From: Planctomycetota bacterium
Lineage (GTDB): Bacteria; Planctomycetota; B15-G4; JADJEK01
Assembly: GCA_043802345.1 (NCBI GenBank)
Contig: JAZDLC010000258.1
Coordinates: 1-55,660, forward strand
Direction: 5' to 3'
DNA: 55,660 nt
Positions within the stretch are counted from its first letter, which is position 1. Each line of letters opens with the position of its first letter. Below are positions 11,831 through 43,090 of this stretch, in pieces. Position numbers and translations under genes: made by a program. The notes below the pieces were generated by a model that was given only the letters and a program-made list of their open reading frames with translations, made no database searches and was not told where the DNA came from.

Positions 11831-12453
11831 GGGCGCGCCTCCTCCACCAGCATCCTGAGTCTGGCCGTGGCCCGGCCCGGATCGGCCGCCGCGGTCACGG
11901 CCCGCATCACCGCGACACCATCCGCGCCGGCCCGCATGGCCGCCGCCGCGTGCTTCAGTCCGATCCCGCCCAGGGCGACGACCGGCAGGCTGATCAAGGA
12001 CGCGAGCGCGCGGAACCGCTCCAGCCCCAGGGCCGGGAGCGGCTTGCTCGGCACCGCGAACAGCGGCGAGAGGGTGATGTAGTCGCACGCACCGAACCAG
12101 TCCGGATCGAGCGGATCGTGTCCGGAGAAGCCGAGCAAGGGAGCAGGCCCGACACGTTCCCGAACCCGGGCCGGCGGGTCGTCTCGAAAGCCGAGGTGCA
12201 ACCCCGAGAGACATGGGCTGGCCGCAAGCTCTTCATGTCCGCTGCAGATCAGCAGCGCGGAGGAGTCGTCCGCCCGCGGCGAGAGCGCGAGGAGCAGCGA
12301 CTCCAGCTCCTCGCGCGGCCGTGACCGCTCGCGAATCCAGAGCGCCGAAGCGCCGTTCTCCAGGCAGGCGAGGCACAGCTCCAAGAGCCGCGTGAGATCC
12401 CCTTCGCCCGGCGTGATGACCACCAGGCGAAGTCGCCCAGCGGCCCGGCTCAT
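11827..12453 (-). CDS. thiE: Thiamine-phosphate synthase
   Basis: 208 aa with ThiE-like motifs (RLVVITPG, CDYITLSPLFAVPSK, LPVVALGGI). Its ATG overlaps the upstream stop (ATGA 12450-12453). Confidence 0.8.
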   Translation of the reverse strand: MSRAAGRLRLVVITPGEGDLTRLLELCLACLENGASALWIRERSRPREELESLLLALSPRADDSSALLICSGHEELAASPCLSGLHLGFRDDPPARVRERVGPAPLLGFSGHDPLDPDWFGACDYITLSPLFAVPSKPLPALGLERFRALASLISLPVVALGGIGLKHAAAAMRAGADGVAVMRAVTAAADPGRATARLRMLVEEARP

Positions 12454-14570
12454 GTTTCTTCGATCGGGCCTGGCTCAGCCTCCGGCTGATCGACCTGCTG
12501 CCCCAATCCCTGGTCGAGAAAGAGCCCTCCCTTGGAGAGTTCCTGCTCCAACGTCGCGAGGTCGGCGCTCTCCTCCACCACGATGGCGGTGGGTGAAAGA
12601 CGTTCCGAGTTCACCTCCTTGGCGGAGAGCGCGCGCAAGACCCGGTCCATGATCTCCCGATTGCGCCCGCGCAGCACGACCATCTTCCGCGCGCTCACGA
12701 ACCGCACCTTGCCCGCCCATTCCTTGACCGAGTAGACGACATTCTGGGGGATGGTGCCCCGGGCGTTCTCCGAGAGCACTCTCAGAATCTCGGACACGTC
12801 CAGCCCCTCCGCCACCGCCTTCTCGATCGACGATGCGGTCAGGCGGTAGCGATAGACCGAGTCGGAGCTCTGCCGCTCCGCGAATCGATCCAGTCGGGTG
12901 ATCAGATCGTACGTCTCGCCCCCTTCCGGGAAGAGCAGGACCTCGAAGTCGGGGTTGACCATCAGCGGCCGGCCGGCCTGCGCCAGGTCGTCCGGAAGCG
13001 CCCGGCCGAGGGCTCTCGCGCCCAGCGGGGTCAAGCGCACGCAGACCGCCACGCTGTCCTTCACTCCCAGGTCGACCAGCCCCATCAGGTAGAGCCGGTC
13101 CCTGAGCCACTGGAACAGCCACTGCGCCAGACCCGCGGCATCTCGCATGACGGCGGTGGGCGCATACTGGTAACGGTTCTGGAAGGCGTCCCGCACATGG
13201 TCCTCTTCCAGCCGGGCAAGGTACGCGTTCCGCGCGGCGAGCGGCAGAGCCATCACATGATGGAAGGTGCCGACCTGCTGGGTGGCCAGGATCTCGAGCA
13301 ACTGATCCCGCAACCTTGGGGCGTGGAAGGAGTCGCCGTCCTTGAGCTGCTCCCGGAAGGCGAAGTCGAGCAGGACCCGGAGCTTCTTCTCCAGCTTCTC
13401 CGTCTCCCACATCCGCCCCTTGACGGTGATGTGCAGGTTGCGGTCCTTCCTGCCTTCCACCAGCTTCCTCGAGACGCAGAAGTCGTAGATGTACTGAAAG
13501 GAATCGATCCCCACCAACTCCGACTTCTTGGCCAGGATGAACTGGTCGATCAGCTTCTTCGTCACCGTGCGGTAGATCTGGCCGTTCAAGGTCAAGCGCA
13601 CGCGGTTGTGCGCCACGAACGAGAGCAGATTCGAGATGTCGGAGATCATGTCGACACCACACGTCTTGATGTCGTCGATGTCCTTCGCGGAGTCGGGCCC
13701 GACTTCCCGGCGGTGCGCGGCGACCACCTCGTCGAACAGGACGAGAGTGTCGTCAAAGTGGTTGATGCCGTACTCGCCGAGGGCCAGATGCCGGAGAGTC
13801 CCCAGATAGAGCCTCTCGATCTCGCACTTGAATCGCTTGCGATCCCATCTGGGAGCAGATCCGCGAACACGGTCGTACTGCGACTTCGGTATGAACCCGC
13901 CTGTCTCCTTCACGGACACGCCAACCGCCTGCTTCAGGTCGTCGTCCAGGAGCCCCAGGCGATGGACGATTTCGGCAGGGGTGCAGAGCAGGCGGATCGC
14001 CTCATCCAGGTCGCTCAGCGGTCTCGGTTCGGAGAGAACCTGCGACATCCGTTCCAGCTCGGCCGGACCGAGCCGTCTCAGGAAGACCCGCAGGCTGAAC
14101 ATCTCCTTCGGCGTGCTCTCGTCGTCCCAGAGGAAGGCGTGCAGCACCTCTCCCAGATCTCCTGGAATGGAGAAGGAAGTGTCGCCGTTGCGCTGGCTGC
14201 CGGGAGGATCGAGCTGGAACACGAAGCCCCGCTTCTGCAGGGCGTTGAGCGCGGCTTCCACCTCGTACTGGCTCATGTAGTTGAACAGGCGCGACCGGAC
14301 CACGTTCTCCCTGCTCACGGTGAACGCCCGATCCCGCAGCAGGAACCGGAGCAGATCGACCAGCTTCTTGGAGAGGAACTTGAGCCGCTTGCGGACCGAT
14401 TCATCATCGGTCATCTTCACGACCAGTGAGTCGATCAGCGCATCGGAAGTTTTCGGCGCGGGACTCCCGCCGTCCCAGAACGAGTAGAACTCCCGCAATT
14501 CCTCACGGGTCCGCTCCCGGAGCAGCCGCTCCAGGCTAGGGGCCCTGGGACCTCGCGTCGTGTCGCTCAT
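12450..14570 (-). CDS. XPB-associated large uncharacterised protein (helicase-associated-domain type, about 706 aa)
   Basis: Long ORF with good coding bias immediately downstream of, and overlapping, the XPB helicase gene. From memory, bacterial XPB genes (for example in actinobacteria) are followed by a protein of similar size and unknown function. I recognised no catalytic motif by eye. The start is ambiguous: ATG 14570 gives a 35-nt overlap and ATG 14612 a 77-nt overlap. Confidence 0.75.
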   Translation of the reverse strand: MSDTTRGPRAPSLERLLRERTREELREFYSFWDGGSPAPKTSDALIDSLVVKMTDDESVRKRLKFLSKKLVDLLRFLLRDRAFTVSRENVVRSRLFNYMSQYEVEAALNALQKRGFVFQLDPPGSQRNGDTSFSIPGDLGEVLHAFLWDDESTPKEMFSLRVFLRRLGPAELERMSQVLSEPRPLSDLDEAIRLLCTPAEIVHRLGLLDDDLKQAVGVSVKETGGFIPKSQYDRVRGSAPRWDRKRFKCEIERLYLGTLRHLALGEYGINHFDDTLVLFDEVVAAHRREVGPDSAKDIDDIKTCGVDMISDISNLLSFVAHNRVRLTLNGQIYRTVTKKLIDQFILAKKSELVGIDSFQYIYDFCVSRKLVEGRKDRNLHITVKGRMWETEKLEKKLRVLLDFAFREQLKDGDSFHAPRLRDQLLEILATQQVGTFHHVMALPLAARNAYLARLEEDHVRDAFQNRYQYAPTAVMRDAAGLAQWLFQWLRDRLYLMGLVDLGVKDSVAVCVRLTPLGARALGRALPDDLAQAGRPLMVNPDFEVLLFPEGGETYDLITRLDRFAERQSSDSVYRYRLTASSIEKAVAEGLDVSEILRVLSENARGTIPQNVVYSVKEWAGKVRFVSARKMVVLRGRNREIMDRVLRALSAKEVNSERLSPTAIVVEESADLATLEQELSKGGLFLDQGLGQQVDQPEAEPGPIEET

Positions 14571-16281
14571 CGTCACTCGCTTCGTTCCGCTGGATGTCCA
14601 TCTGGTCCACATCCCGGATCTCGTAGGAGTACCCCTGTTCGGTCAGGAAGAGCTGCCGGTGATTGGCGAACTCCGACTCCTTCGATTCGCAGGTAACCAG
14701 GCTGTAGAACCATGCTGGCGATCCATTCGATTTCGGCCGCAGGATGCGCCCCAGGCGCTGGGCCTCCTCCTGGCGGGACCCGAAGGTCCCGGAGACCTGA
14801 ATCGCCACGGCTGCATCTGGCAGGTCGATTGCAAAATTTCCTACCTTAGAGACCAGGAGCAGCGGAAGCTCACCTTCTCGGAACAACTTGTAGAGCCGCT
14901 CTCGCTCCCGATTCGGTGTCTTGCCGGTGATCAGTGGCGCCTTTAGCCGGATCGCAAGTTTCTCCAGTTGATCTATGTACTGTCCGATTATCAACTTCCG
15001 TTCGTCCGGATGCTGCTCGATCAGCCATTCTGCCACCGCCTCCTTGGCGGGATTCTCCGAAGCCATGCGAAACTGGGTCCGAGCCGAACTGCTCTGGTAC
15101 TCGTGCTTCATGTCGTCCGGGATCGGAATCCGAACCTCGACACAGATGGCCCGGGCGATCCAGCCCTGTCGTTCCAGGACCTTCCATGGGACATCACACT
15201 TCTTCGGCCCGATGAGGGAGAAGACTTCATCCTCTTTGTGGTCTTCCCGGACCAGCGTGGCCGTCAGTCCCAGGCGCCTGGTGGCCTGGATCTCGGCGGT
15301 CACGCGGAAGACCGGCGCCGGCAGCAGGTGGACCTCGTCGTAGATGACCAGGCCCCAGTCGTTGGCCGAGAAGAGGTTGAAGTGCACGAACGGGGTGTTC
15401 TTCTTCCTGCGGTAGGTCAGGATCTGGTACGTGGCGATGGTGACCGGCCGCACTTCCTTCGTGTCGCCGGTGTACTCGCCGATCTGGTCCTCCGGAATGT
15501 CGGTCTTGTCCAGCAGTTCCGCCCGCCACTGGCGCACGGCCACCACGTTGGTGGTGAGAATCAACGTCTGGGAGCGCACCCGGTCCATCACGCCGAGGCC
15601 GACCACCGTCTTGCCCGCTCCGCAGGGCAGCACGATCACTCCGGAGCCGCCCCGCTCTGATCCGCCGGCGTAGAACACGTCCGCGGCATCCCTCTGGTAC
15701 GGCCGCAGCCGGAACGGCTCGCCGCTGCGCATGACCTCGCGCAGTTGGAACTGGAACGGCGCCCCCGGCGCATATCCCGCGAGATCCTCCACCGGGTAGC
15801 CGATCCGGATCAGCGCCTGCTTCACCTCGCCCCGGTACTCAGGCGGAACCTCGATGCTGTCTCCCGTGGCCGGCTTGCCCAGGAGCTTGCGGATCGCCGG
15901 ACTCTTCGTGACATCGTTGAGCAGCTTCGGTTCGGTCGAGGAGAGGACGATCCGTTCTCCGATCCTCTCCAGCCGCAGCAGACCGAACTTGCGAATGTTG
16001 TCCCGCACGTCCCGGTCGATGTTCGGGGGGACCGGATAGCGCGACCGGTCCTGAAGAAAAGCGAGGATGGTGTCCGCGTCCAGGCCGGCAGCCGCGGCGT
16101 TCCAGATCGAGAGCGGAGTGATGCGGTAGGTGTGGAAGAACTCCGGCGACTTCTCCAGCTCGGCGAAGCTGGACAGAAAGTCCCGTGCCTCGGCGAACCC
16201 GGGGGCGTTCACCTCCAGCAGGACGGTGCGGTCGCCCTGGACCGTCAGAGGCTTCGCGCCGGTCTCCGGATCGTGGCTCAT
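14536..16281 (-). CDS. xpb: XPB/Ssl2 (ERCC3/Rad25)-type SF2 DNA helicase
   Basis: 581 aa. The N-terminal damage-recognition-like domain reads LLEVNAPGFAEARDFLSSFAELEKSPEFFHTYRITPLSIWNA. It has Walker A LPCGAGKT, a DEVH box (IYDEVHLLP), motif III with the XPB RED signature (GLTATLVRED), and a C-terminal RecA2 domain. Confidence 0.9.
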   Translation of the reverse strand: MSHDPETGAKPLTVQGDRTVLLEVNAPGFAEARDFLSSFAELEKSPEFFHTYRITPLSIWNAAAAGLDADTILAFLQDRSRYPVPPNIDRDVRDNIRKFGLLRLERIGERIVLSSTEPKLLNDVTKSPAIRKLLGKPATGDSIEVPPEYRGEVKQALIRIGYPVEDLAGYAPGAPFQFQLREVMRSGEPFRLRPYQRDAADVFYAGGSERGGSGVIVLPCGAGKTVVGLGVMDRVRSQTLILTTNVVAVRQWRAELLDKTDIPEDQIGEYTGDTKEVRPVTIATYQILTYRRKKNTPFVHFNLFSANDWGLVIYDEVHLLPAPVFRVTAEIQATRRLGLTATLVREDHKEDEVFSLIGPKKCDVPWKVLERQGWIARAICVEVRIPIPDDMKHEYQSSSARTQFRMASENPAKEAVAEWLIEQHPDERKLIIGQYIDQLEKLAIRLKAPLITGKTPNRERERLYKLFREGELPLLLVSKVGNFAIDLPDAAVAIQVSGTFGSRQEEAQRLGRILRPKSNGSPAWFYSLVTCESKESEFANHRQLFLTEQGYSYEIRDVDQMDIQRNEASDDERHDARSQGP

Positions 16282-19200
16282 GCGGTGTGCTCCAATTCGG
16301 ATACCGACCGGGATTTTGTCAATTCCTGCCTGAGGCGTTGCCCGGTGTGCGATGCTCCGCAGGCCGCGACATCTTCCGGAGTTCCCTGCACGACCAGCCT
16401 GCCGCCCCGGAGACCTCCTTCAGGCCCGAGGTCGATCACATGGTCCGCGCACTTCACGACGTCCGGATTGTGCTCGATCACCAGCACGGTGTTGCCGCCG
16501 TCCACCAGTCGGCCGAGCACCGCGACCAGGCGAGCCACATCATCCAGATGCAGCCCCGTGGTCGGCTCGTCGAGCAGGTAGAGCGTCTCTCCCCGGGCCG
16601 GTCCCGCCAGCTCCGAGGCCAGCTTGACTCTCTGGGCCTCGCCACCCGAGAGGGTGGTCGCGGACTGGCCCAGCCGCAGGTAGCCCAGGCCCACGTCGTC
16701 CAGAAGACGCAGCGTTCGCCGGATTCTCGGGTGGTTCCGGAAAAACTCCAGGGCCTCGCAGACCTCCATCTCCAGGACGTCCGCGATCGACTTGCCGCCA
16801 AACGTCACGCCCAGCGTCTCCCGCTCGAACCGTTTCCCCTCGCACGCCTCACAAGTCACGTAGACATCCGACAGGAAGTGCATCTCCACCTGCACCATCC
16901 CCCTTCCCTCGCACGCCTCGCACCGCCCTCCGGAGAGATTGAACGAGAAGCGTCCCTTCTGGAAGCCTCTCATGCGCGCCTCGGGCGTGGCGGCGAAGAC
17001 CTCCCGGATGCGGTCGAAGATTCCGGTGTAGGTGGCGGGATTCGAGGATGGCGTCGGCCCGAGCGGAGACTGGTCCACCACCGCGAGGTTCCGCACCCTC
17101 TCTGAAATCGAGAGGGACTGGAACGTCCCCCGCAGATCCCGGTCGCCCCGCAGCCGGCGCCGCACCGCCGGCTCGAGCAGGTCCATCACCAGCGTCGACT
17201 TGCCCGACCCGGACACGCCGGTCACGCAGGTCATGGCCCCCGCCGGGATGCTCACGTCGAGCGACCGCAGATTGTGCAGGCACGCTCCCTCCAGCCGGAT
17301 CGCGGTCTTGCTGGTGTCCCGCCGGGCCGCGGGCAGGGGGACCTGCTTCTGATTCCGCAGATACGCTCCGGTGAGGGAGCGCGGATCGTTCTCCACGTGC
17401 GAGACAGGGCCCGCGGAAACGACCTGCCCGCCCCGATGTCCAGCGCCCGGGCCGATGTCGATCAGGTAGTCCGCAGCCCGGATCACGTCCAGATCGTGCT
17501 CCACCACCAGGATCGTGTTCCCGAGCTGCTTCAGGTTCTCCAGGGTCTCGATCAGGCGCGCGGTGTCCCGGGGATGGAGGCCGATGGTCGGCTCGTCCAG
17601 CACGTACAGGACTCCCACGAGGCGGTTTCCGAGCTGGGTCGCGAGCCGCAGTCGCTGCGCTTCCCCTCCGGACAGGGTCGAGGAGCGGCGATCGAGCTGC
17701 AGGTAGTCGAGCCCGATCTCGTTCAGGACCTCGATCCGGTTCTGGATCTCCTTCAGGATCTCCCTGGCGATCTCGCCCCTGGAGCCTTCCAGCTTCAGCT
17801 CCCTGAAGAAGCGGAGCGCCTCCTCCACCGTCAGGCGGGAGAGCTCCCCAAGGGTCTTGCCGCCAAGACGGAACGAACGGGAAAGCGGATTGAGCCGCTC
17901 TCCATGGCAAGCGGGACACTCCCCCTCCACCATCAGGGGATGCAGCCGCTGGCGCCACCACCTCCCCTCGCCGGGAACCTGGTACTTCGCCTCGAACATG
18001 CCGCAGATCCCGGCCCACTTGACGTCGAACGAGTACTCCCTCCGGGAGTGGCGGGAGTTGCGCACCACCTCGACCCGGACCGGATCGGGGTGCCCCCTCA
18101 GGATGATCCGCCGGACTGCCTCCGGCAGGTCCCCAAAAGGCGCATCGAGATCGAAGTCATGCCGCTCCGCCAGGGCGCTCAAGACGCGGCTCACGCCGAA
18201 GTGACGTCTCGAGAGCGTCCGTTTCCAGGGAGCCACCAGCGCTCCCTTGAACAGGGGGCGGCCCGGATTCTCGATCAGCCGGTCCTCGTCGCAACGCTCC
18301 AGCCGTCCCAGCCCGTCGCATTCCCCGCAGGCGCCCAGATGCGAGTTGAACGAGAACAGGCGCGGGTGCGGCTCCTCGGCCAGACGAATGCCGTGCGCCG
18401 GGCAGGCCGGCTCCCTGGTGAACAGTCGCTCCTCTCCGTCCTGGTCCCTCACCAGCGCCAGGTTGTTGCCACGGCGGTACGCCTGCTCGAACGACTCCGC
18501 GAGCCTGGTCCTGGAGGAGCCGCGCACCAGGACGCGATCGACGATCAGATCGATCCGCCGGACCTCGGCGAGCCTTCTCGGCGGCGCATCCTCAAGGCGC
18601 AATTCCTCCCCATCCAGCGCGTAGCGGACGAACCCCTCCTTCAGCAGCTCCTCCCGGATCTCAAGGAAGCGGGCGGGCCGCTCCAGCGGCTGCCGGCCGC
18701 CCAGGCTCTTCCGGTAGAGGGGCGCCAGCAGATGGATCTTCCGTCCCGGGAACCGGGCGACGGTTTCCCGCGCGGCGAGACCGGGAGGCGATGCCTCCAG
18801 CACACGGCCGCACTCTGGACAGTGTGCGGTTCCCACGCGGGCGTACAAGACCCGGAGGTAGTCATGGATCTCGGTGGAAGTCGCCACGGTGGAGCGCGGG
18901 TTTTTCGAGGCCGCCCGCCGGTCGATCGCGACGGCCGGCGAGAGGCCCTCGATCAGGTCGACCGGGGCGCGGTCCATCCTGGAAAGGAAGCGCCGGGCGT
19001 AGGTCGACATCGATTCCACGAACCTGCGCTGAGCCTCGGAGAAGATGGTGTCGAAGGCCAGGGAGGTCTTGCCGGAACCGGACACGCCGGTCACCACCGT
19101 GAAGGAGCCCCTGGGAATCTCCACGTCCAGCCGCTTCAGGTTGTTCACGCTGGCCCCGACCACCCGCAACGGTACCTCTCCTCCGGGTCCGGACTCCTTC

Positions 19201-22058
19201 ACCACCGGGCTTCGGTTCGGGGAAGGAGGCAACAGGTATTCCTTCAGCAACCGGCCCGTCCACGACGTCTTGCTGCGCATCGCCTGCCGTGGCGTGCCGT
19301 AGAAGACCACTTCGCCGCCGCCCTTCCCCCCCTCCGGTCCCAGGTCGATGATGCGGTCGGCCGTCTTGATCACGTCCATGTTGTGTTCGATCACCACGAC
19401 CGTGTTGCCGGAGTCGACCAGCACAGCGAGCGCGGACAGCAGGCACTCGATGTCGGCGAAGTGCAAGCCGGTGGTCGGCTCGTCCAGGAGGTACAGGGTG
19501 CTCCCGGTGCCGGGCCGTCCCAGTTCGCGGGCCAGCTTCAGCCGCTGGGCCTCGCCCCCCGACAGGGTGGTCGCCGTCTGGCCGAGCCGCACGTACCCCA
19601 GGCCCACGTCACACATCGTCTTCAAGACCCGGCCCAGCTTCGGATGGGCCTCGAAGAAGGCCGCCGCCTCGACGACCGTCATCTCCAGCACCTGGCGGAT
19701 GTTCTTCGAGCGGTATTCGACCTCCAGCGTTTCCCGGTTGTAGCGCAGCCCGCCACACTCGTCACACGGGATCTCCACGTCCGCCAGGAACTGCATTTCC
19801 ACGACCTTCACGCCGGCTCCCCCGCATTCCTCGCACCGGCCGCCCGCCACGTTGAAGGAGAAGCGTCCCTTGAGATAGCCTCGCGCCTTCGACTCGGGCA
19901 GCATCGCGAACAGGTCTCGAATGTGGGTGAGGGCCCCGCTGTACGTGGCCGGGTTCGAACGAGGTGTGCGCCCGATCGGCGCCTGACCGATCTCGATCAC
20001 CTTGTCGATCCGCTCGGCCCCCTCGATCCGGTCGTGTTCTCCCACCGGCTCCCGCGCGCCGTGAAGGTCCCTTGCCAGCGCCCGCTTCAGCACCCGGTCC
20101 AGCAACGTCGACTTGCCGGAACCGGACACGCCGGTCATGACCACGAAGCATCCCAGCGGGATGCGCACGTCGATGTTCTTCAGGTTGTGGTGCCGGGCTC
20201 CCCGGACGATCAGCTCACCACGGTTCGCCTGCCGCGTCTTCCGCGGCATCGCGATGCTCCGCTCGCCTCTCAGGAACTGCGCGGTCACGGACGTTGCCGA
20301 CCTGAAGACCGCTTCCGGCCGCCCGCTGGCGACCACGTGTCCCCCCTCGTTCCCCGCTCCCGGCCCGATATCGACCAGGAAATCGGAGGCGAGCATGGTG
20401 TCCCGATCGTGCTCCACCACCAGCACCGTGTTCCCGCGGTCCCGGAGCTGCTGCAGGGTCCGGATCAGGCGGTGATTGTCGCGCTGGTGCAAGCCGATCG
20501 ACGGCTCGTCCAGGACATACAACACCCCCTGAAGCTGGGAGCCGACCTGGGTGGCGAGCCGGACTCTCTGCGCCTCGCCGCCCGACAGGGTCCGGGCGCC
20601 GCGATCGAGCGGCAGGTACCCCAGCCCCACATCCGCGAGGAAGCGGAGCCGCGAGCGGATCTCCCGCAGGACCTCCCGGCCGATCTGTTCCTCGGCCGGG
20701 CGCAGCTCGAGTCCGGAGAACCACTCGCACAGCTCCTCCACCGTGGCCGCGGACAGGTCGCTGATGGCGCGGTCGCGGAAGGTGACCGCCCGCGCTTCCG
20801 GCCGCAACCTCGTGCCCTCGCAGAGGCCGCAGACCACGCGCGACATGTACTTCTCGAGATGGGGCGTGCGAGTCACCTTGTACGCCCGCTCCATCGAGGG
20901 GATCAGCCCCCTCAGCGGCCGGTGGTCCGAGCCGCGAACGGTGCGCCCGCTGCTGCCGTCCACATATTCCCAGCTCAGGCGCAGCTTCCTCGTGCCCGAA
21001 CCGAACAGCAGGACATTGCGTTGTTCCTCCGTCAGATCCTTCCAGGGCGTGTCGAGGGAGAAGCGGAAGGCGCTGGCGACCCTCTCCAGCGACTCCGGCC
21101 CGAGCCGCGAGTAGGTCACATAGCCGGTCCTGGAGGTGGTCGCGATCGCCCCCTCCCGGATGGAGAGGTTCTCGTCCGGCACCAGCAGGCGCGGATCGAA
21201 TCGCTGGCTCATGCCCAGTCCGGAGCAACTCCTGCAGGCGCCATACGGTGAGTTGAAGGAGAAGAGCCGCGGCTCCAGCTCGGGAAAGTCGAGTTCGCAG
21301 TCGGGGCAGGCGAGCCGCGAGGAGAACAGCGCGTGCTCCTCGCCGATCAGCGCTGCCACCACGCCGTCCGCCAGCTTGAAGGCCGCCTCGACCGCCTCGG
21401 CGAGCCGGCCGCGGCGCTCCGCAGTGGCGCGCAGCCGATCGACCACGACCTCGATGGTGTGCTTCTGGTACCGCGAGAGGCTGATTTCCTCGTCCAGGCG
21501 GCGCACGGTTCCGTCGATTCGGGCCCGCACGAACCCCTTCAGCCGCAATCCCTCCAGATCCTTGCGATACTCCCCCTTGCGGCCCCGAATGATCGGCGCC
21601 AGCACCTGCACCGTGCCCCCCTTGGCCTGGCCCAGGAGCCGGTCCGCGATCTGATCCCGCGTCTGCGCCACCAGCCCCCGGCCGCATTTCGGGCAGTGCG
21701 CCTCCCCCAACCTGGCGAACAGGAGCCGCAGATGGTCGTGGATCTCGGTGATGGTGCCGACCGTCGAGCGCGGGTTCCGGTTGACCGTCTTCTGATCGAT
21801 CGAGATGGTCGGCGAGAGCCCGTCGACCCGGTCGACCCTCGGCTTGTCCAGATTCCCCAGGAACTGGCGCGCGTAGGCGGACAGCGACTCGATGAACCGC
21901 CTCTGTCCTTCCTGGAAGATCGTGTCAAAGGCGAGCGACGACTTCCCAGACCCGGAGACGCCGGTAATGGTCGTCAAAGCCGACCTGGGAATCCGCAGAT
22001 CGATGCTCTTCAGGTTGTGCTCACGAGCACCTTCTACGACAATCTCGTTGAGGGACAT
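16278..22058 (-). CDS. uvrA: Tandem-fused excinuclease ABC subunit A (two complete UvrA units in one 1926-aa polypeptide)
   Basis: There are four Walker A motifs: GVSGSGKSS near residue 33, GVSGSGKST near 643, GVSGSGKTS near 991, and GVSGSGKST in the last quarter. There are four LSGGEAQR signatures, and CxxC zinc modules occur in both halves. Unit 1 is about residues 1-945, a P/S-rich linker spans about 946-962, and unit 2 runs from about 963 to 1926. The stop overlaps the XPB ATG (ATGA 16278-16281). Confidence 0.9.
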   Translation of the reverse strand: MSLNEIVVEGAREHNLKSIDLRIPRSALTTITGVSGSGKSSLAFDTIFQEGQRRFIESLSAYARQFLGNLDKPRVDRVDGLSPTISIDQKTVNRNPRSTVGTITEIHDHLRLLFARLGEAHCPKCGRGLVAQTRDQIADRLLGQAKGGTVQVLAPIIRGRKGEYRKDLEGLRLKGFVRARIDGTVRRLDEEISLSRYQKHTIEVVVDRLRATAERRGRLAEAVEAAFKLADGVVAALIGEEHALFSSRLACPDCELDFPELEPRLFSFNSPYGACRSCSGLGMSQRFDPRLLVPDENLSIREGAIATTSRTGYVTYSRLGPESLERVASAFRFSLDTPWKDLTEEQRNVLLFGSGTRKLRLSWEYVDGSSGRTVRGSDHRPLRGLIPSMERAYKVTRTPHLEKYMSRVVCGLCEGTRLRPEARAVTFRDRAISDLSAATVEELCEWFSGLELRPAEEQIGREVLREIRSRLRFLADVGLGYLPLDRGARTLSGGEAQRVRLATQVGSQLQGVLYVLDEPSIGLHQRDNHRLIRTLQQLRDRGNTVLVVEHDRDTMLASDFLVDIGPGAGNEGGHVVASGRPEAVFRSATSVTAQFLRGERSIAMPRKTRQANRGELIVRGARHHNLKNIDVRIPLGCFVVMTGVSGSGKSTLLDRVLKRALARDLHGAREPVGEHDRIEGAERIDKVIEIGQAPIGRTPRSNPATYSGALTHIRDLFAMLPESKARGYLKGRFSFNVAGGRCEECGGAGVKVVEMQFLADVEIPCDECGGLRYNRETLEVEYRSKNIRQVLEMTVVEAAAFFEAHPKLGRVLKTMCDVGLGYVRLGQTATTLSGGEAQRLKLARELGRPGTGSTLYLLDEPTTGLHFADIECLLSALAVLVDSGNTVVVIEHNMDVIKTADRIIDLGPEGGKGGGEVVFYGTPRQAMRSKTSWTGRLLKEYLLPPSPNRSPVVKESGPGGEVPLRVVGASVNNLKRLDVEIPRGSFTVVTGVSGSGKTSLAFDTIFSEAQRRFVESMSTYARRFLSRMDRAPVDLIEGLSPAVAIDRRAASKNPRSTVATSTEIHDYLRVLYARVGTAHCPECGRVLEASPPGLAARETVARFPGRKIHLLAPLYRKSLGGRQPLERPARFLEIREELLKEGFVRYALDGEELRLEDAPPRRLAEVRRIDLIVDRVLVRGSSRTRLAESFEQAYRRGNNLALVRDQDGEERLFTREPACPAHGIRLAEEPHPRLFSFNSHLGACGECDGLGRLERCDEDRLIENPGRPLFKGALVAPWKRTLSRRHFGVSRVLSALAERHDFDLDAPFGDLPEAVRRIILRGHPDPVRVEVVRNSRHSRREYSFDVKWAGICGMFEAKYQVPGEGRWWRQRLHPLMVEGECPACHGERLNPLSRSFRLGGKTLGELSRLTVEEALRFFRELKLEGSRGEIAREILKEIQNRIEVLNEIGLDYLQLDRRSSTLSGGEAQRLRLATQLGNRLVGVLYVLDEPTIGLHPRDTARLIETLENLKQLGNTILVVEHDLDVIRAADYLIDIGPGAGHRGGQVVSAGPVSHVENDPRSLTGAYLRNQKQVPLPAARRDTSKTAIRLEGACLHNLRSLDVSIPAGAMTCVTGVSGSGKSTLVMDLLEPAVRRRLRGDRDLRGTFQSLSISERVRNLAVVDQSPLGPTPSSNPATYTGIFDRIREVFAATPEARMRGFQKGRFSFNLSGGRCEACEGRGMVQVEMHFLSDVYVTCEACEGKRFERETLGVTFGGKSIADVLEMEVCEALEFFRNHPRIRRTLRLLDDVGLGYLRLGQSATTLSGGEAQRVKLASELAGPARGETLYLLDEPTTGLHLDDVARLVAVLGRLVDGGNTVLVIEHNPDVVKCADHVIDLGPEGGLRGGRLVVQGTPEDVAACGASHTGQRLRQELTKSRSVSELEHTA

Positions 22059-22236
22059 CGGTGCGGCTGTCTAACCGGTGCGCGGCGCCGAGCTCCTTTC
22101 CTTCTGATGGTCGACCCAACGATCAACATGTTTCTCTCGATCAGAGGGAAGCGGTTGATACTACTGCCTCCGGTCCGCGCGGTGGAAGGGTGTTGCCGGA
22201 AGAATCTCCAGACTTGAGAGGAGCCTGCCGACCCTG

Positions 22237-23088
22237 TTGAATGTCGGTGACGACCGATCCCAAGTTGGGGGCCAATCTGCCTTGACGGAGAACTCGAACG
22301 AGCTGGCGACGTCGGAGGGGCCGCCCCGCGCTCTTCTGAAGGTGATCGTGGTCATGCCGGCGTACAACGCGGCGGACACGCTCGAGCGGACCTATCGCGA
22401 CATTCCCCGGGATTGCGTCGACGAGATCATCCTCGTGGACGACGTCTCCAGCGACGACACGGTCGAGGTTTCGCGGCGGCTGGACGTCACAACCATCCAG
22501 CACGAGCGGAATACCGGCTACGGCGGCAACCAGAAGACCTGCTACAGAGAGGCCCTGGCCCGCGGCGCCGACATCGTGATCATGGTGCACCCGGACTACC
22601 AGTACGACTCCCGGGTGATTCCCGCGATGATCTCGTTCCTGCGCCTGAACATCTGCGACGCGGTGTTCGGCTCCCGCATCCGGACGCGCGAGGAGGCGCT
22701 CCAGGGCGGCATGCCGTGGTGGAAGTACATCGCCAACCGGTGCCTGACGATGACCGAGAACATCGTTCTCGGCCAGAACCTCAGCGACGCCCACACCGGC
22801 CTTCGGGCCTACACCCGGCAGGTGCTCGAGACCATTCCGTTCCAGAACAACTCGGACGATTTCGTGTTCGATTCCCAGTTCATCTCGCAGTTGGTCTACT
22901 TCGGGTTCAGGATCGGGGATGTCCCGGTGCCGACGCGGTATTTCCGCGAGGCCTCCTCGATCAACTTCAAGCGCAGCGTGGAATACGGGCTCTCCACCCT
23001 GGCGACCATGGGACGGTATCTCCTGCAAAGAGCCGGCCTGGCCCACTTCGCGATCTACGCCGCGGACAGGGATTCCAAGACCCGGTGA
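22237..23088 (+). CDS. GT2 family glycosyltransferase, polyprenyl-phosphate sugar synthase type (ArnC/Dpm1-like)
   Basis: It has [14 protein letters not shown] and [11 protein letters not shown] motifs, [10 protein letters not shown], and a C-terminal amphipathic region. The start is uncertain: ATG 22237, or a GTG just before VIVVMPAYN. Confidence 0.85.
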
Positions 23089-24596
23089 AGCGCACCATCC
23101 TGCTGTTCTTCCTGCTGCTCATGCTCGGCAAGACCTTTGCCGCGTCCCGGCTGGACCTGTTTGGCGACGAGGCGTTCTACTTCATGTGCAGCGGCCGGAT
23201 GGACGTCGCCTTCGCGGACCATCCCTTCATGACCGCGCTCCTCGTCAAGATCGGAACCAGCCTGCTGGGTCCCGTCGAGCTCGGCTGCAGGCTGGTCTTC
23301 CTGCTGCTGGGCGCCCTTTTCCCGCTGCTGATCTTCCGCCTGGCGCGCCCCCTCGTGGGCTCCAGGGACGCATGGCTCGCGGCCGGCCTGAGTCTGGTCA
23401 TGCCGGCCACCGCGCACCTCGGGCTGCTGGCGCTTCCGGACGTGCCCCATCTGTTCCTGGCCGCGCTGGCGCTGCTCCTGTTTCTGAGGGCCGTCGAGCG
23501 GCCGGCGACCTGGCTGTTCGTCGCCGCCGGGGTGGTCACGGCGCTCGGCCTCTCGACCCACTACCGATTCGTCCTGGTGCCGTTCTCGTTCGGGTTGTGT
23601 CTGATCCTGACGCGATCGGGCCGGGCTCTGCTTCGCACCAGGGGCCCCTGGCTTGCGTTGCTGACGATGCTGCCCGGCCTGCTGCCGGCACTCCTCTATA
23701 ACGTGCGGCTCGACTTCGCCCCCTTCCGCTACCAGGCAATGGACCGCCACGGTTCCGGCTTCGACCTGAAGGCCCTGGCCGAGCATATCCCGGCCCAGAT
23801 GGTGGCAACAACTCCCCTGATGTACGTGGTCCTCGTCGCCACCCTGGTCGTGATGCTGCGGAGGATGCGGCAAGGCGACGCGCGCATGGCTCCCCTGGCT
23901 CTCTTCAGCCTTTCGCACCTCGGTCTCTACCTCCTGGCGAGCCCCATCACCGACGCGAGCCACGCCAGCATCCACTGGCCGGCGCCCGGGTACCTGCCGC
24001 TGCTCGTCTTCGCGCCGGGAATCCTGCGGGAGTTCCTGCAGAGGAAGCCGACCCGCCTGCGGCGCGCGCTGGTCGTGGCCACACCCGGACTGGGGGTGCT
24101 GGTCCTCTCGCTGGCCTTCCTCGAGCTGAACACACACCTGTTCCGGATTCAGTCCCTCGCACGCCCCTTCGCCGGCTGGACGGAGGTGGCCCGGGAGGCC
24201 GGCCGCCAGCTCGCGGACCATCCGGAGCTCGCGCGGGCAGGGTCGCTGCCGCTGCTGGTGGCGGACAACTACATGCTCGCCGGCAACCTCGAGCTCAAGC
24301 TTGCGGGCCGGGCGGAGCTGTTCGTCCTGGACCACCAGAAGGGTTACGAACACGGCCGAGCGGCACAGTTCGCGCAGTGGGGAAACGGCGAGGAGGGGCT
24401 GAGAGGGAGGACCGGAGAGGATGCCCTGGTCGTGGTCGAGCGGACCCGCACCAGTTCCCGAGGCTGGGAAGCCTGGCGAGCGCATGTCGCTGCCTTCTTC
24501 CAGAAGCTGGAGCCGTTGGCGGAGATCGAGACGCCCGGCGGGAAGAGCGGCAAGCCGAAACGGTTCGAGTTCTATGTGGGGCGTGGCATCAGGTAG
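23085..24596 (+). CDS. GT-C fold glycosyltransferase, ArnT/PMT (GT39/GT83-like) family, polytopic membrane protein
   Basis: The GTG at 23085 overlaps the GT2 stop (GTGA). It has a first-loop DE motif (LFGDEAFYF), about 10 or more hydrophobic helices, and a soluble C-terminal domain. The upstream part of ORF 22413..24596 lies out of frame inside the GT2 gene. Confidence 0.8.
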
Positions 24597-38452: not shown

Positions 38453-38884
38453 TCATGACATAAACAGAAGGTACGACCCGATGACCACACCTCCCTGATC
38501 GTAGAGGACGAACTCGAAGTACATGTGTCGCCCGCAGAGCACTTCTCCATGGTCCTCGCGGGTCACAGTGAACGCATCGTACGTTTCCGGAGTGCCTTTG
38601 CCCTTGCTTGCGCAGTCGCGAACACACCAGGCATAGAACCCTGCCGATTCGGTGAGAAATGACACCTCGCCTTGCTGGGCCGGCCTTCCGTTCTTCGCTC
38701 TGACTTCGGCTCTGGTACTTCCAGGAGGGTACGTGTCGGCCAGATCGGTGGCGAAATGCTGGTTCAATCTCTCCCATCGCTGCTCAGCGGTCAGGCAACC
38801 GATCTGGATGAGTGCGAGCAGCATGAGGGCGAGACACACCAGGTGGCGGAGGCATCCGGCGGTGACTCTTGGGTGGTCTGACAT
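38453..38884 (-). CDS. Small membrane-anchored/lipoprotein-like hypothetical protein (143 aa)
   Basis: It has a hydrophobic N-terminus with a possible weak lipobox (LALMLLALIQIGC). It is visibly less GC-rich than its neighbours. No family recognised. Confidence 0.6.
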   Translation of the reverse strand: MSDHPRVTAGCLRHLVCLALMLLALIQIGCLTAEQRWERLNQHFATDLADTYPPGSTRAEVRAKNGRPAQQGEVSFLTESAGFYAWCVRDCASKGKGTPETYDAFTVTREDHGEVLCGRHMYFEFVLYDQGGVVIGSYLLFMS

Positions 38885-39016
38885 TCGCGCTTCCTCCCGA
38901 TTCGCTCCCTGTCCGTCGCTGGGGTGAAGCCGAATCTGGCACGGGAGGGGTTGGGATTCAAGGCGGTTGTCGTGGGGACGGGCGTCCTGGATTCCGAGGT
39001 CTCGTCACCTTGTCTT

Positions 39017-39044
39017 TTGGGTCGGGCTGGTCCGGGCCTACAAT
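39017..39044 (+). promoter_or_regulatory. Candidate sigma-70-type promoter, possibly giving a leaderless mRNA
   Basis: TTGGGT-N16-TACAAT ends 7 nt before the ATG at 39052, so the predicted transcription start falls at or next to the start codon. Motif match only. Confidence 0.3.
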
Positions 39045-39051
39045 CGGCGTG

Positions 39052-41016
39052 ATGAACAGTGAACCTTCCCGGATCGGGCTGGCCTTGCGGTGCCTGGGCG
39101 CTGCTTCCGTGGCGGCGCTGGTGGTGGCGGTGGCTGAGGTCTGCCTGGCTGTCGCCGGCGGGAATGCGTTGTTGGGGGCGGTTCCGGCTTCTGAGCGGGT
39201 CGCGTACCTGCTGCTGGTGGTGGCGGTCTTTTGGGTGATCGCGGTGCCGGCGGCGGTGGTCGGGTTCGTCGTGTCGCTGGTTCGGGCCAGGGTTGGGGTG
39301 GCGGTGGCGGCGCTGTTGCCGTGCCTGTTGGTCGCGGAGGCGGCGTGGCGGGCGGCGGGGGATCTGCGCGGGGGGATGGCGCAGGTCCTGGCGGGGATTG
39401 CGTTGGGAGCCGGGGTGGTGCTGGGGGCGCTGTTCTGGTGGCGGCCGTTGCTGATTTCGGGGCGCGGCGCTCTAGGCATGGTGGGTGCTGGAGTGTTGCT
39501 GTTCGTCTGTCTGCGGCTGGTTCCCTTGGGGCCAGGGGAGGTGGAGTCCGGGGAGGCGGTGTTGGAGGCTCCGGCTGGGTTGCCGGTGAATTCGGTGGCG
39601 CCGGTGAGGAACCTGCTGGTGCTGCTGGTCGACACGCTGCGGGCGGACCATCTCGGGTGTTACGGCTACCCGCGGCAGACGAGTCCGCGGATGGATGCCT
39701 GCGCGCTCGAGGGGACTCTGTTCGAGAACGCGGCAACGCCGAAGGCGAAGACCTCTCCGGCGGTCGCGTCGCTGTTCACCGGCACCTGGCCGAGAACTCA
39801 CCGGGTGCTGGCGACCCAGTACGAGCTGGTCGGCGAGAATGTCACTCTGGCCGAGACGTTGAAGGAGTCCGGGTTCACGACGTTCGGAGTGAGCGCCAAT
39901 CCGAACGTCACCACTCCCTTCGGCTTCGGTCAGGGTTTTGACGAGTTCTGGTACGTGGGGAAGGTCCAGACGCAGGACGGGAGGAGGATTGGCAGCCATG
40001 CGGGCCGGCTCAGGGACCAGACGATCGCCTGGCTCAAGGAACATCAGGGCGAGCGGTTCTTCGCCTACGTGCACTTCATCGACCCGCACTCGCCCTACAA
40101 TCCGCCCCCGCCCTACCGAACGATGTTCAAGGGAGACGCGCTGGACGGCGAACTCGGTACGCGGGAACTCGAGATCCTGGACGAGAGCTACTTCGACGGC
40201 CTGCATCGGTCAGTGTATTTGCCGGAAGCGGGGCTCGATCTGGACAAGTATGTCCTCCGCTACGATGGGGAAATCCGGTACACGGATGAGGCGATCGGCG
40301 CGATCCTGGACAGTCTCGCGGAGTCCGGCCTCGACGACTCCACGCTCGTGGTGATCACCGCCGACCACGGCGAGTCGAAAACCGAGCATCACTGCTACTT
40401 CAATCACGGCCTGCTGCCGTATGAAGAGCACGTTCACGTTCCGCTCGTCGTCAGAGGTCCGGGCATCCCCGCGGGCCTGCGCAGGCGGGAGCAGGTTTCC
40501 CTGGTCGGCCTCATGCCGACTCTTCTCGACCTGGTCGGCGTGCCGGTGCCGGACCGGGTCGAGGCAGCCTCGTTCGCCGGTCTGCTCGGGCAGGATGTTC
40601 CCACGGTCGAGGGGGAACCGACGCAGATCTCCTCCATCGGGGAGAAGAAGGCGGAGCCCACTCAGGGACTGCGTACGAACCGGTGGAAGTACCTCTTCAA
40701 TCCGGGGGGACGCTCATTGCGAGAGGCCCTGCGATTCGCCAACCTGGCCGTCCCGGGAAGGCGGCTCGCCTTCACGCTGGACGACATCCGCGACTACCAG
40801 CTCGAGGAGGAACTGTACGACCTGAACGCAGATCCTCTGGAACTGACGAACCTCTCCTACCGGAGTGCGGCGATCCGGCAGGGTTTTCATCGTCAGATGG
40901 TGTCGCTCCGGGAGTCGTCCCGTCCGGTGTCCGAGGAGCCCCGAATCCTCGACACGGAGGATTTCAACGCCGAGCTGAGGAACGCGCTCATCCAGCTGGG
41001 CTACGTCGGCAAGTGA
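39052..41016 (+). CDS. Membrane-anchored alkaline-phosphatase-superfamily (sulfatase-fold) hydrolase/transferase
   Basis: The N-terminal ~190 aa are A/V/G-rich TM helices. The sulfatase-fold core follows (LLVLLVDTLRADHLGCYGY ... AKTSPAVASLFTG ... VVITADHGE). At the position of the C/S-x-P-x-R formylglycine motif the sequence reads T-S-P-A-V. The start is taken at ATG 39052. Confidence 0.8.
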   Translation: MNSEPSRIGLALRCLGAASVAALVVAVAEVCLAVAGGNALLGAVPASERVAYLLLVVAVFWVIAVPAAVVGFVVSLVRARVGVAVAALLPCLLVAEAAWRAAGDLRGGMAQVLAGIALGAGVVLGALFWWRPLLISGRGALGMVGAGVLLFVCLRLVPLGPGEVESGEAVLEAPAGLPVNSVAPVRNLLVLLVDTLRADHLGCYGYPRQTSPRMDACALEGTLFENAATPKAKTSPAVASLFTGTWPRTHRVLATQYELVGENVTLAETLKESGFTTFGVSANPNVTTPFGFGQGFDEFWYVGKVQTQDGRRIGSHAGRLRDQTIAWLKEHQGERFFAYVHFIDPHSPYNPPPPYRTMFKGDALDGELGTRELEILDESYFDGLHRSVYLPEAGLDLDKYVLRYDGEIRYTDEAIGAILDSLAESGLDDSTLVVITADHGESKTEHHCYFNHGLLPYEEHVHVPLVVRGPGIPAGLRRREQVSLVGLMPTLLDLVGVPVPDRVEAASFAGLLGQDVPTVEGEPTQISSIGEKKAEPTQGLRTNRWKYLFNPGGRSLREALRFANLAVPGRRLAFTLDDIRDYQLEEELYDLNADPLELTNLSYRSAAIRQGFHRQMVSLRESSRPVSEEPRILDTEDFNAELRNALIQLGYVGK

Positions 41017-41033: not shown

Positions 41034-41564
41034 TCACCCCACCGACGTGATCTTCACCCCGTAGTACTCGTCCACCACCACGATCTCGCCCATGGCAACG
41101 CGCTTGCCGTGGACATACATGGAGACTGGTGAGTCCGCGGTGTTGTCGAGTTCGACCACGGAACCGGGACCCAGCTGGAGAATTTCGTGGATGGAGAGAG
41201 TGGACTTCCCCAGCTCCACGCTCACCGGAACCTTGAGGTCGTAGATCCGGTCCAGTGGCAGATTGGCGTGTCCCAGGCCGCCACTGACTTCCGGAAACCG
41301 CACGGGGGAGGCTTCCGCCACCTGCTGTTCCATCCTTGCTGCGCCCGCCAGTTCGAATTCCCGCACGGCCTCGTCAGCCAGGCCGTCTTCTGGCGCGGCG
41401 CCGACGGCAGGCCCGTCGTCCGACCCGTCTGCGGATTCCACGGCCGCCTCCCCAGCCTCCTCGGCAGCCACCTCGGCCGCCAGCTGTTCCCATTCCGCCC
41501 GCGAGGCAGGGAGTTCGGCGTCCTGACCCTCACCTTCGGCTGATATACTCTGCTCGTCGCTCAT
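41034..41564 (-). CDS. fliN: Flagellar motor switch protein FliN with acidic N-terminal extension
   Basis: The C-terminal SpoA domain reads LKVPVSVELGKSTLSIHEILQLGPGSVVELDNTADSPVSMYVHGKRVAMGEIVVVDEYYGVKITSV. The ATG at 41564 overlaps the fliM stop (ATGA). Confidence 0.85.
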   Translation of the reverse strand: MSDEQSISAEGEGQDAELPASRAEWEQLAAEVAAEEAGEAAVESADGSDDGPAVGAAPEDGLADEAVREFELAGAARMEQQVAEASPVRFPEVSGGLGHANLPLDRIYDLKVPVSVELGKSTLSIHEILQLGPGSVVELDNTADSPVSMYVHGKRVAMGEIVVVDEYYGVKITSVG

Positions 41565-42574
41565 ATCGACTCCTTCACTTCTGTGCGTTCGGTGATGCGG
41601 ATCGCCAGCCTCGTTCGGGACCTGCCCGGAGAACACATGAATTCGGTCTTCTCGCCAATCATGACTTCGAGCGGCTCCCCGATCCTGCGATCCAGAACCA
41701 GGACATCTCCTGGTGAAAGACTGCTGAATTCACCCAGGTCGACGATCGCCTGCCCCAGGCGCGCGGACACGGTCATCTTCATGGAGCGCACGAACTTCTC
41801 AAGACGGCGGTCAACCTCCTCCGGCCGCCCCGGCTGGGCATCCCCCTCGTCCGGCGTCAGCAGACTCATGACTGACGCATGCTGCACCACCAGGGCCAGC
41901 ATTCCTCCCTCTTCTCCATCTCTCAGGTCGGTCGCCAGCAGGACCACGTTGTCCGTTCCCCGCATCAGGCGGGTGGGCGCCTGATTCAGGCGTTCGAGAT
42001 CAATGCTGTACGCCAGATCCGGGCCCTTGCCGGTGCGACGCCCCCGCATCAGCTGATTCACTCTCCGCAGCAACCCGGCCACGAAGGGGCGCAGGGCGGA
42101 ACGGCTGATCTCCCCGATCGGGGACGGCGGCCTGTCCTCCTCTCTCTCCTCCTCGGACGGCTCCTCTCCCTCCTCGGGCTCACGCTTCTTCCACCCCAGC
42201 AGGAATCCGATCAGGAACCGCTGCAGCTCATCGTCCAGCACCAGGACCGCGCGCTCTCCGGTGTTGGCCCGGAGTGGAATGAACCAGCCGTCCTCGCTGA
42301 GTTCCGTCACGGCGGCCCCGAATGAGAGAACCTCCACGTCCCTTGCCTCGCCGCCCGTGGGCGCTCGGGTGTGGCTGGAGAGAGTCTCCTTCATTCGCCT
42401 GGAGAAGCGAATCGAGAACAACCGAAGCTCCTCCAGAATCCGGCCGCTGGGAGGAGCCGGCCTGCGGAAGTCGCGACTCCTGACGGAGCGGTTCCGGTCG
42501 CTCTTGCGGCGCCCTCCGAGAATCGGACCAACCGCGAGTTTCCTTTCGTACATCATCCGGGAAGCCTCGGTCAC
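41561..42574 (-). CDS. fliM: Flagellar motor switch protein FliM (divergent)
   Basis: It has the conserved RDFRRP segment followed by ELRLFSIRFSRRMKETLSS, a middle domain, and a C-terminal SpoA domain (LSPGDVLVLDRRIGEPLEVMIGEKTEFMCSPG). The start is either GTG 42574 (overlapping the fliL stop) or ATG 42556. Confidence 0.8.
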   Translation of the reverse strand: MTEASRMMYERKLAVGPILGGRRKSDRNRSVRSRDFRRPAPPSGRILEELRLFSIRFSRRMKETLSSHTRAPTGGEARDVEVLSFGAAVTELSEDGWFIPLRANTGERAVLVLDDELQRFLIGFLLGWKKREPEEGEEPSEEEREEDRPPSPIGEISRSALRPFVAGLLRRVNQLMRGRRTGKGPDLAYSIDLERLNQAPTRLMRGTDNVVLLATDLRDGEEGGMLALVVQHASVMSLLTPDEGDAQPGRPEEVDRRLEKFVRSMKMTVSARLGQAIVDLGEFSSLSPGDVLVLDRRIGEPLEVMIGEKTEFMCSPGRSRTRLAIRITERTEVKESI

Positions 42575-43089: not shown

Positions 43090-43090
43090 C

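Follow-up and report, generated by a model that had tools for sequence, protein, structure and literature searches.

A double-length class I UvrA encoded together with an XPB helicase and a putative p52-like partner in Planctomycetota

How would UvrA, which senses DNA damage in bacterial nucleotide excision repair and ordinarily works as a pair of identical chains, behave if both protomers were encoded in one reading frame, and what might it share with an XPB-type helicase encoded immediately downstream? UvrA acts as a dimer, and whether it works with UvrB as A2B2 or A2B1 is debated (PMC7835731). The question is raised here by a 55,660-nt contig from a Planctomycetota bacterium (GenBank assembly GCA_043802345.1, contig JAZDLC010000258.1, positions 1 to 55,660; this whole stretch is hereafter the window), where a double-length uvrA gene (written uvrA2 in gene orders) is followed on the minus strand by overlapping genes for an XPB helicase and for a protein, P0121, predicted to fold like the TFIIH subunit p52. 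We consider it probable (roughly 0.7) that the double protein is a single-chain equivalent of the UvrA2 dimer that would load UvrB, and that it would be co-expressed with an XPB/p52-like module acting in the same pathway. An earlier note on this DNA, made from the letters alone (the preliminary description), had singled out the double UvrA; the minus strand and the downstream XPB and p52-like genes, which it missed, are the more informative context. The uvrA2-xpb-p52-like trio is the unexpected part of the locus, no prior description of it having been found in our literature search, and the value of any follow-up lies in this operon rather than in the UvrA fusion.

A single polypeptide with two full class I UvrA units

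The tandem gene encodes two complete class I UvrA units, arranged head to tail in one chain (Table 1). Against a profile built from 56 canonical UvrAs, the units extend over aa 3-942 and aa 964-1914 and cover profile positions 4-938 and 7-939, respectively. Both halves also score above the cut-offs of two NCBI UvrA models over the full model length (NF001503, 1341.2 bits for the N half and 1184.1 bits for the C half vs. a cut-off of 1147; TIGR00630, 1285 and 1147 bits vs. 729.8), and match solved class I UvrAs end to end with 1112 and 962 bits. Chance is no concern for these matches, since their E-values are 0. Pfam places the UvrB-binding domain (UvrA_inter) and the insertion domain (UvrA_DNA-bind) twice each along the chain, and all 16 ATPase motifs were found, i.e., Walker A at aa 33, 643, 991 and 1614, LSGGE signatures at aa 491, 832, 1462 and 1803, and four copies each of Walker B (..LDEP) and of the H-loop. 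The preliminary description had reported two complete units in a 1926-codon open reading frame (ORF), four Walker A and four LSGGE motifs, and an insertion/UvrB-binding region in each half, all of which these searches bear out. Its placement of the linker at aa 946-962 (about nt 19175-19223) agrees with the unit boundaries given by the profile, and the two peptides that it quoted as an example of divergence are both present, as segments of the UvrB-binding domains of the N and C units. It had further proposed CxxC zinc modules in both halves, which holds for the modules themselves (three per unit, with all ligands there) and less strictly for the motif, as zinc module 1 of the C unit has CPAH for its second pair, making this a Cys3His module. 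Histidine takes this position in 7 of 68 canonical UvrAs and in 23 of 128 C units as well, so that CPAH can be regarded as an ordinary variant. Neither half lacks an essential ATPase or zinc element, a check that the preliminary description had asked for.

A class II protein would be recognized by the absence of both the UvrB-binding domain, which class II UvrAs lack (PMC9328131, PMC5128194), and the first zinc module, and both are present in both units. Because the two units carry UvrB-binding domains and class I UvrAs come out as their best matches in both fold and sequence, we assign the protein to class I and not to class II. The class II proteins (D. radiodurans UvrA2, 2VF7; Ecm16, 7SH1; DrrC) resemble it as UvrA-family ABC ATPases, of which tandem class II-like forms exist, but as fold matches they rank lower. 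Like the class I UvrAs of E. coli, G. stearothermophilus (2R6F/3UWX), M. tuberculosis (3ZQJ) and T. maritima (3PIH), each unit has the full domain set, and each is about 46-52% identical to canonical UvrAs. An AlphaFold2 (AF2) model of the C unit is predicted with confidence (predicted local distance difference test, pLDDT, 89.1 overall and 93-96 across the UvrB-binding domain) and matches 3uwx_A, the UvrA of the UvrA-UvrB crystal structure, with a Foldseek template-modelling (TM) score of 0.85 over 968 columns. Unlike the canonical homodimer of identical ~940-aa chains, however, the window protein is one 1,926-aa chain, in which a linker of ~21 aa joins asymmetric units that are 46% identical to each other.

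The preliminary description had wondered whether this architecture was new and had called for a database check, which shows that it is not: the layout is common in Planctomycetota, occurs in other phyla and is already annotated as UvrA. Searching 5.8 billion proteins returned, among the matches listed, at least 120 homologues of 1,830-2,512 aa (47-76% identity to the window protein, coverage 92-100%), originating from NCBI, JGI, ENA and Logan assemblies and including the finished genome of Aquisphaera giovannonii. All 120 contain two full-length units according to the canonical-UvrA profile, and the linker between them is always in frame, 10-39 residues long (median 16), rich in R, A, P, G and K, and unconserved. 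The named homologues (NCBI, JGI) are Planctomycetota proteins that carry the plain label “excinuclease ABC subunit UvrA”. Among GTDB species genomes, double-length UvrAs were also found in Latescibacterota, in metagenome-assembled genomes (MAGs) of Fibrobacteres and Chlamydiae, and in others, and all UvrAs of Planctomycetota at the best 80 genome loci are double-length. NCBIfam already holds a 1,809-position model for an “excinuclease ABC subunit A” (NF001885, PRK00635), which we take to represent the roughly 1,786-aa UvrA of Chlamydia. The window protein shares the double length with this model but was rejected by it (1318.4 bits vs. a cut-off of 3054, aligned over 1,200 positions), and the three other double UvrAs tested, from Latescibacterota and from the Fibrobacteres and Chlamydiae MAGs, also missed the cut-off. 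A full-text literature search found no paper on double-length UvrA, and a “class III” or duplicated UvrA category is said to appear in Goosen and Moolenaar's 2008 article. Overall, the tandem architecture is real, widespread and already annotated, and appears to have been characterized by nobody.

The range of such architectures was surveyed with the C unit as query against 1.84 billion representatives of 50%-identity clusters. The best 150 representatives are all multi-unit UvrA-like proteins (1,032-2,343 aa, with 2-6 matched stretches each), and 149 of these were parsed for architecture: 31 contain two complete units as in the window protein, in 39 the first unit is complete and the second is without insertion domain, and 33 consist of two class II-like units that both lack the UvrB-binding domain. 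Many double UvrAs of ~1,780-1,810 aa have no insertion domain in the second unit, and in this they differ from the window protein, which keeps it.

Several of these forms deserve mention in their own right. The tandem class II-like proteins make up a large and separate family of about 1,600-1,680 aa (e.g., P0211, P0206, P0246). The type without a second insertion domain was also seen at genome loci (~1,765-1,810 aa; L008, L009, L010 and L033). The bins of L009 and L033 are from the human gut and labelled Senegalimassilia and Alistipes, a provenance suggestive of mis-binning or transfer. An extra C-terminal extension of 220-370 residues follows the second unit in double UvrAs of the Isosphaeraceae/Pirellulaceae type (P0030, P0101, P0104, L012 and similar ones).

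Evolutionarily, we compared 247 units (89 N units, 90 C units and 68 single UvrAs from many phyla) in a neighbour-joining tree based on the canonical-profile alignment, with 100 bootstraps. All 90 C units fall in one clade (bootstrap 61, with a core of 74 at 98), the 68 single UvrAs group in a second one (bootstrap 67), and the N units are found in two clades, of 74 (bootstrap 83) and 15 (bootstrap 98). The N and C units of a given protein are never sisters, and their identity of 46-49% corresponds to about the same distance as that of either unit from the canonical UvrAs of other phyla. Because the C units form one clade, N and C are never sisters and the distance within a protein is large, the tree points, with moderate support, to a single ancient duplication-fusion whose halves would have co-evolved since, rather than to repeated recent fusions.

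Judged by sequence comparison across the family, the asymmetry between the two units is real. In 120 of 120 homologues, the canonical profile gives the N unit a higher score than the C unit, and the C units have evolved ~1.2 times faster (median ratio of C-C to N-N distances for the same protein pairs, 1.21), an excess concentrated in the UvrB-binding domain. There, N units retain 0.98 of the invariant positions and C units 0.71 (other domains, 0.89-1.00 and 0.85-0.94, respectively), and pairwise identity is 0.49 among N units, 0.36 among C units and 0.41 among canonical UvrAs. Domain loss has the same direction, the insertion domain being absent from the second unit only in 39 and from the first unit only in 5 of the 149 representatives. 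The preliminary description had found the second unit to look more diverged, had pointed to this very region, and had suggested an asymmetric damage sensor, an idea that is borne out as a description of the protein.

The window protein follows this trend closely, with UvrB-contact residues judged by conservation and not from published contacts. Its N-unit UvrB-binding domain keeps all 15 of 15 canonical invariant positions and scores 105-110 bits against full-length solved UvrAs and 89.7 bits against the Geobacillus interaction domain (3fpn_A). In the C unit, retention falls to 0.73, the KHxIE motif is gone and the R..RLA(D/E)S.E.A helix is retained, and the scores are 33-62 bits against solved UvrAs, 46.9 bits against 4dfc_B and 27.5 bits against 3fpn_A. 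A degenerate second unit was considered and ruled out by motifs that are intact family-wide, by the confident C-unit model and by its match to 3uwx_A. Among 128 C units, about 97-100% have their ATPase motifs and zinc ligands intact, and a like share of 128 N units keeps the ATPase motifs. Both units are complete, and the four nucleotide-binding sites are under purifying selection.

An operon with XPB and a p52-like partner

What XPB does in bacteria continues to be described as elusive (PMC13024598), and homologues of other TFIIH subunits were, according to a 2012 study, not known from bacteria (PMC3353954). The helicase encoded behind the tandem uvrA covers positions 1-547 of the 548 in the NCBI model for “DNA repair helicase XPB” (NF045503, 843.9 bits vs. 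a cut-off of 610) and contains the Pfam domains Helicase_C_3, ResIII, Helicase_C and ERCC3_RAD25_C. Human XPB (292 bits, with aa 9-555 aligned) is nearer to this helicase than archaeal XPB (120 bits).

The next gene product, P0121, is recognizable by sequence only in its C-terminal domain, a homologue of the N-terminal domain of XPB that Pfam PF13625 matches at aa 550-672; no Pfam Tfb2 match was obtained at E<=0.001, and the profile of the partner family matches only the XPB N-terminal domain in the PDB (E 1e-6). We built an AF2 model with 43 homologues (pLDDT 85.8), for which the top 18 Foldseek matches in the PDB are all p52/Tfb2 chains of TFIIH (including 6trs), with XPB chains lower in the list. 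These matches have E-values from 3.4e-11 to 3e-6 over ~550 columns at a probability of 1.00, and TM scores of 0.2-0.3, a low value that is expected because the protein is flexible and multi-domain. According to this model, P0121 matches the p52 fold, which is characterized by an array of winged helices and a clutch domain. In a profile search of limited reach, no further p52-like partners were found outside Planctomycetota, the detected homologues all belonging to this phylum, and a full-text literature search found no paper on a bacterial p52-like partner of XPB.

The pair thus recalls the XPB-p52 (Ssl2-Tfb2) part of TFIIH, with a bacterial XPB that has a eukaryote-type N-terminal domain and a neighbour whose predicted fold matches p52. 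Within TFIIH, the “clutch” domain of p52 pairs with the XPB N-terminal domain, whose fold it shares (PMC6422496), and the homology between the P0121 C-terminal domain and the XPB N-terminal domain mirrors this pseudo-dimer (PMC6422496). The differences are that the other TFIIH subunits are absent here, that the likeness to p52 holds at the level of fold and not of sequence, and that the bacterial module is coupled to UvrA rather than to XPC/XPA. Archaea likewise encode xpb beside a dedicated partner gene, for the helicase-nuclease XPB-Bax1 (PMC13024598), but the window partner is p52-like and not a Bax1 nuclease, and the archaeal XPB is the more distant one.

The order uvrA2-xpb-p52-like was found in the window and at nine other loci (L001-L003, L005-L007, L011, L085 and L087). 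Of 23 GTDB XPB loci, 20 have informative upstream sequence, and in 18 of these a double uvrA lies directly upstream of XPB; a p52-like partner lies directly downstream in 18, including one in a Brocadiaceae MAG. The nearest relatives are Phycisphaera and Phycisphaeraceae MAGs, by which the window can be assigned to Phycisphaerae. The operon is absent beside the double uvrA of Aquisphaera, a Pirellulaceae MAG, Latescibacterota and others. Two fusions were each seen in a single sequence, a UvrA-UvrA-XPB protein of 2,512 aa (P0008, JAXMBY010000086.1, L085 8001-15539) and an XPB-partner protein of 1,216 aa (P0147). They may be genuine fusions or may result from indels of a single base, and we give them little weight because the genes overlap out of frame, where a single-base error could mimic a fusion. 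For a putative binding of P0121 to the XPB N-terminal domain, the adjacency of the genes and P0147 are suggestive. From the conserved gene order, the translational coupling and these single-instance fusions, it seems probable that the three products are made together and act in the same pathway.

The linkage to XPB also coincides with a difference between clades. The similarity of the C-unit UvrB-binding domain to the canonical consensus is 0.51 in the XPB-linked clade and 0.64 in the unlinked clade, whereas the N units do not differ (0.73 vs. 0.71). A more diverged C-unit domain in the XPB-linked clade is suggestive, as a single phylogenetic contrast.

Table 1. Coordinates of the tandem uvrA gene, its parts and the two downstream genes in the window.
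Feature	Position	Strand	Remarks
uvrA-uvrA	16278..22058	-	ATG start, 1926 codons plus stop, uninterrupted; two class I UvrA units
N unit (aa 1-942)	19233..22058	-	Canonical-like; both ATPase modules, three Zn modules, UvrB-binding and insertion domains; 1112 bits to 9gxk/2r6f
N-unit UvrB-binding domain (aa 118-256)	21291..21707	-	RGRKGEY and KHTIEVVVDR motifs kept
Inter-unit linker (about aa 943-963, LLPPSPNRSPVVKESGPGGEV)	19170..19232	-	~21 residues, low complexity, unconserved
C unit (aa 964-1926)	16278..19169	-	Complete, faster-evolving; ATPase motifs intact; Zn1 Cys3His
C-unit UvrB-binding domain (aa 1076-1226)	18381..18833	-	Diverged; RGRKGEY replaced by a 9-residue-longer loop
xpb (XPB/ERCC3/Rad25-type superfamily 2 (SF2) helicase, 581 aa)	14536..16281	-	ATG overlaps uvrA stop (ATGA)
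p52/Tfb2-like partner (P0121, 706 aa)	12450..14570	-	ATG 35 nt inside xpb 3' end

A probable tethered damage sensor and its alternatives

In the scenario that we favour, an ancient duplication-fusion would have permanently joined the two protomers of UvrA2, and the resulting chain of roughly 210 kDa would fold, like UvrA2, as a two-protomer assembly that scans DNA and loads UvrB. The N unit would have stayed canonical, its UvrB-binding domain included, and the C unit, which the fixed 1:1 heterodimer created by the fusion would have left free to do so, would have remodelled its partner-recruitment (i.e., UvrB-binding) domain, so that the sensor would be asymmetric by construction. The XPB/p52-like translocase module would be made together with the tandem UvrA and serve the same damage-processing pathway. 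What we infer here is the intramolecular pairing of N and C units, the loading of UvrB and the functional coupling to XPB.

For UvrB as the partner, a codon-biased motif scan with a follow-up search found UvrB orthologues of full length, with 49-57% identity to the E. coli protein, in at least nine other Planctomycetota genomes (Phycisphaerae, Phycisphaeraceae, Sedimentisphaerales, Gemmataceae, Thermoguttaceae and other Planctomycetota). Since the phylum has UvrB and the UvrB-binding domain of the N unit is tightly constrained, XPB probably does not replace UvrB.

It is tempting to go one step further and to speculate about a hybrid excision-repair machine in Phycisphaerae-type Planctomycetota, in which the N unit would serve UvrB and the C-unit recruitment domain would engage the XPB-p52 module, a two-subunit relative of the TFIIH core. 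Different partners for the two copies of the UvrB-binding domain would have a precedent, because the same UvrA domain recruits both UvrB and Mfd (4DFC, 3FPN), that is, one UvrA domain meets several partners with the fold of UvrB domain 2. Unlike in those complexes, however, the C-unit domain of the window protein matches 4dfc_B and 3fpn_A only weakly, and we hold this extension as tentative. If true, bacterial XPB would have a defined role, and the pairing of XPB with p52 would predate eukaryotes or exist outside them.

Several points weigh against the favoured scenario of a tethered, UvrB-loading sensor. The tree on which the single ancient fusion rests was built by neighbour joining from simple distances and supports the monophyly of the C units only moderately (61), and the Chlamydiae C unit is about equally distant from C units and from single UvrAs, so that its placement is uncertain. 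A search for conserved residues specific to C units gave one column only, outside the UvrB-binding domain, and because that domain thus has no C-specific signature, the divergence of the C units may correspond to relaxed constraint rather than to a new function. Finally, uvrB, uvrC and a single uvrA are all absent from the 55-kb window, and among the matches listed UvrB was seen in other Planctomycetota genomes and not in the operon-carrying assemblies.

Other readings of the locus differ in how the units pair, in which partner they serve, or in whether the protein belongs to repair at all. Two double-length chains could pair with each other, as a dimer with four UvrA units or as an open oligomer, and linkers of as few as 10 residues might indeed be too short for pairing within a chain; we nevertheless find this rather unlikely, as the canonical functional unit is a dimer (PMC7835731) and as divergence and domain loss directed at the second unit are easier to picture in a fixed 1:1 N:C heterodimer. 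The coupling of uvrA2, xpb and the p52-like gene in a conserved order, the single-instance fusions P0008 (UvrA2-XPB) and P0147 (XPB-partner) and the more diverged C-unit UvrB-binding domain of the XPB-linked clade (0.51 vs. 0.64) would also suit a TFIIH-like route independent of UvrB, along which the double UvrA would pass damaged DNA to the XPB/p52-like module. Such a route has to contend with an N-unit UvrB-binding domain that is fully canonical and strongly constrained, with the occurrence of UvrB in Phycisphaerae, Phycisphaeraceae and other Planctomycetota, with an operon that encodes no nuclease, and with a contrast between clades that amounts to one phylogenetic event. We judge it improbable.

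UvrA paralogues with other roles are known, such as Ecm16 and DrrC (PMC9328131), and the PADLOC match of the window protein to mad3, a UvrA-like component of MADS, could be taken to hint at a class II-like ATPase of drug resistance or defence. This match reflects generic homology, however, because a 374-position ABC-ATPase profile was matched five times, and a role outside repair is made very improbable by the UvrB-binding domain of both units, which class II proteins lack, by scores of both halves above the UvrA equivalog cut-offs, by the housekeeping neighbours, and by the exclusively double-length Planctomycetota UvrAs among the best 80 loci. As for two adjacent uvrA genes merged through an assembly error or frameshift, the one hint in that direction is the G+C content at third codon positions (GC3), which is lower in the linker (0.70) than in the two units (0.86-0.89). 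The same uninterrupted layout recurs in at least 120 clusters of independent assemblies and in a finished isolate genome, with linkers of differing length that never break the frame, and since at least 120 independent homologues share it, we do not regard the tandem ORF as an artefact, whose probability is close to negligible.

With the tethered sensor as the preferred reading, the tandem UvrA would offer a natural heterodimer in which the ATP sites and the UvrB-binding domains can be mutated protomer by protomer, which is impossible in a homodimer. It thereby bears on the UvrA2B2 vs. UvrA2B1 question and on the choice of the damaged strand (PMC7835731). The conserved and coupled uvrA2-xpb-p52-like unit, in turn, leads to a testable hypothesis for the role and the partners of bacterial XPB.

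Surroundings of the locus

An anti-phage defence function for the operon was tried and rejected: PADLOC returned only generic matches (mad3, and an SF2 helicase match to PbeA) and none for the partner, and the neighbouring genes are of housekeeping types (thiE/thiL-type, tsaE-type and flagellar). Upstream, a divergent intergenic region of 354 bp (22059-22412) separates uvrA (-) from a PMT_2 glycosyltransferase gene (+, 22413-24596), an arrangement that is also present at locus L001. Opposite uvrA, a stop-free frame of 1,325 codons runs antisense (17274-21251, +), with like frames in L005 and L034; because GC3 is very high here (0.86-0.89), we interpret such long alternative-frame ORFs as mechanical by-products and not as genes.

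Further along the window (41561-48959 and 50086-52754), the minus strand carries a flagellar or type III export cluster with a FliN-like protein, a FliI/EscN-type ATPase, FliG and FliF, after which come genes for a sigma-54 activator response regulator and for a PAS histidine kinase. Between 38001 and 40000, the strand asymmetry is locally reversed (GC skew +0.19, AT skew -0.24), which coincides with a sulfatase gene on the plus strand (38869-41016) in otherwise minus-strand-dominated surroundings.

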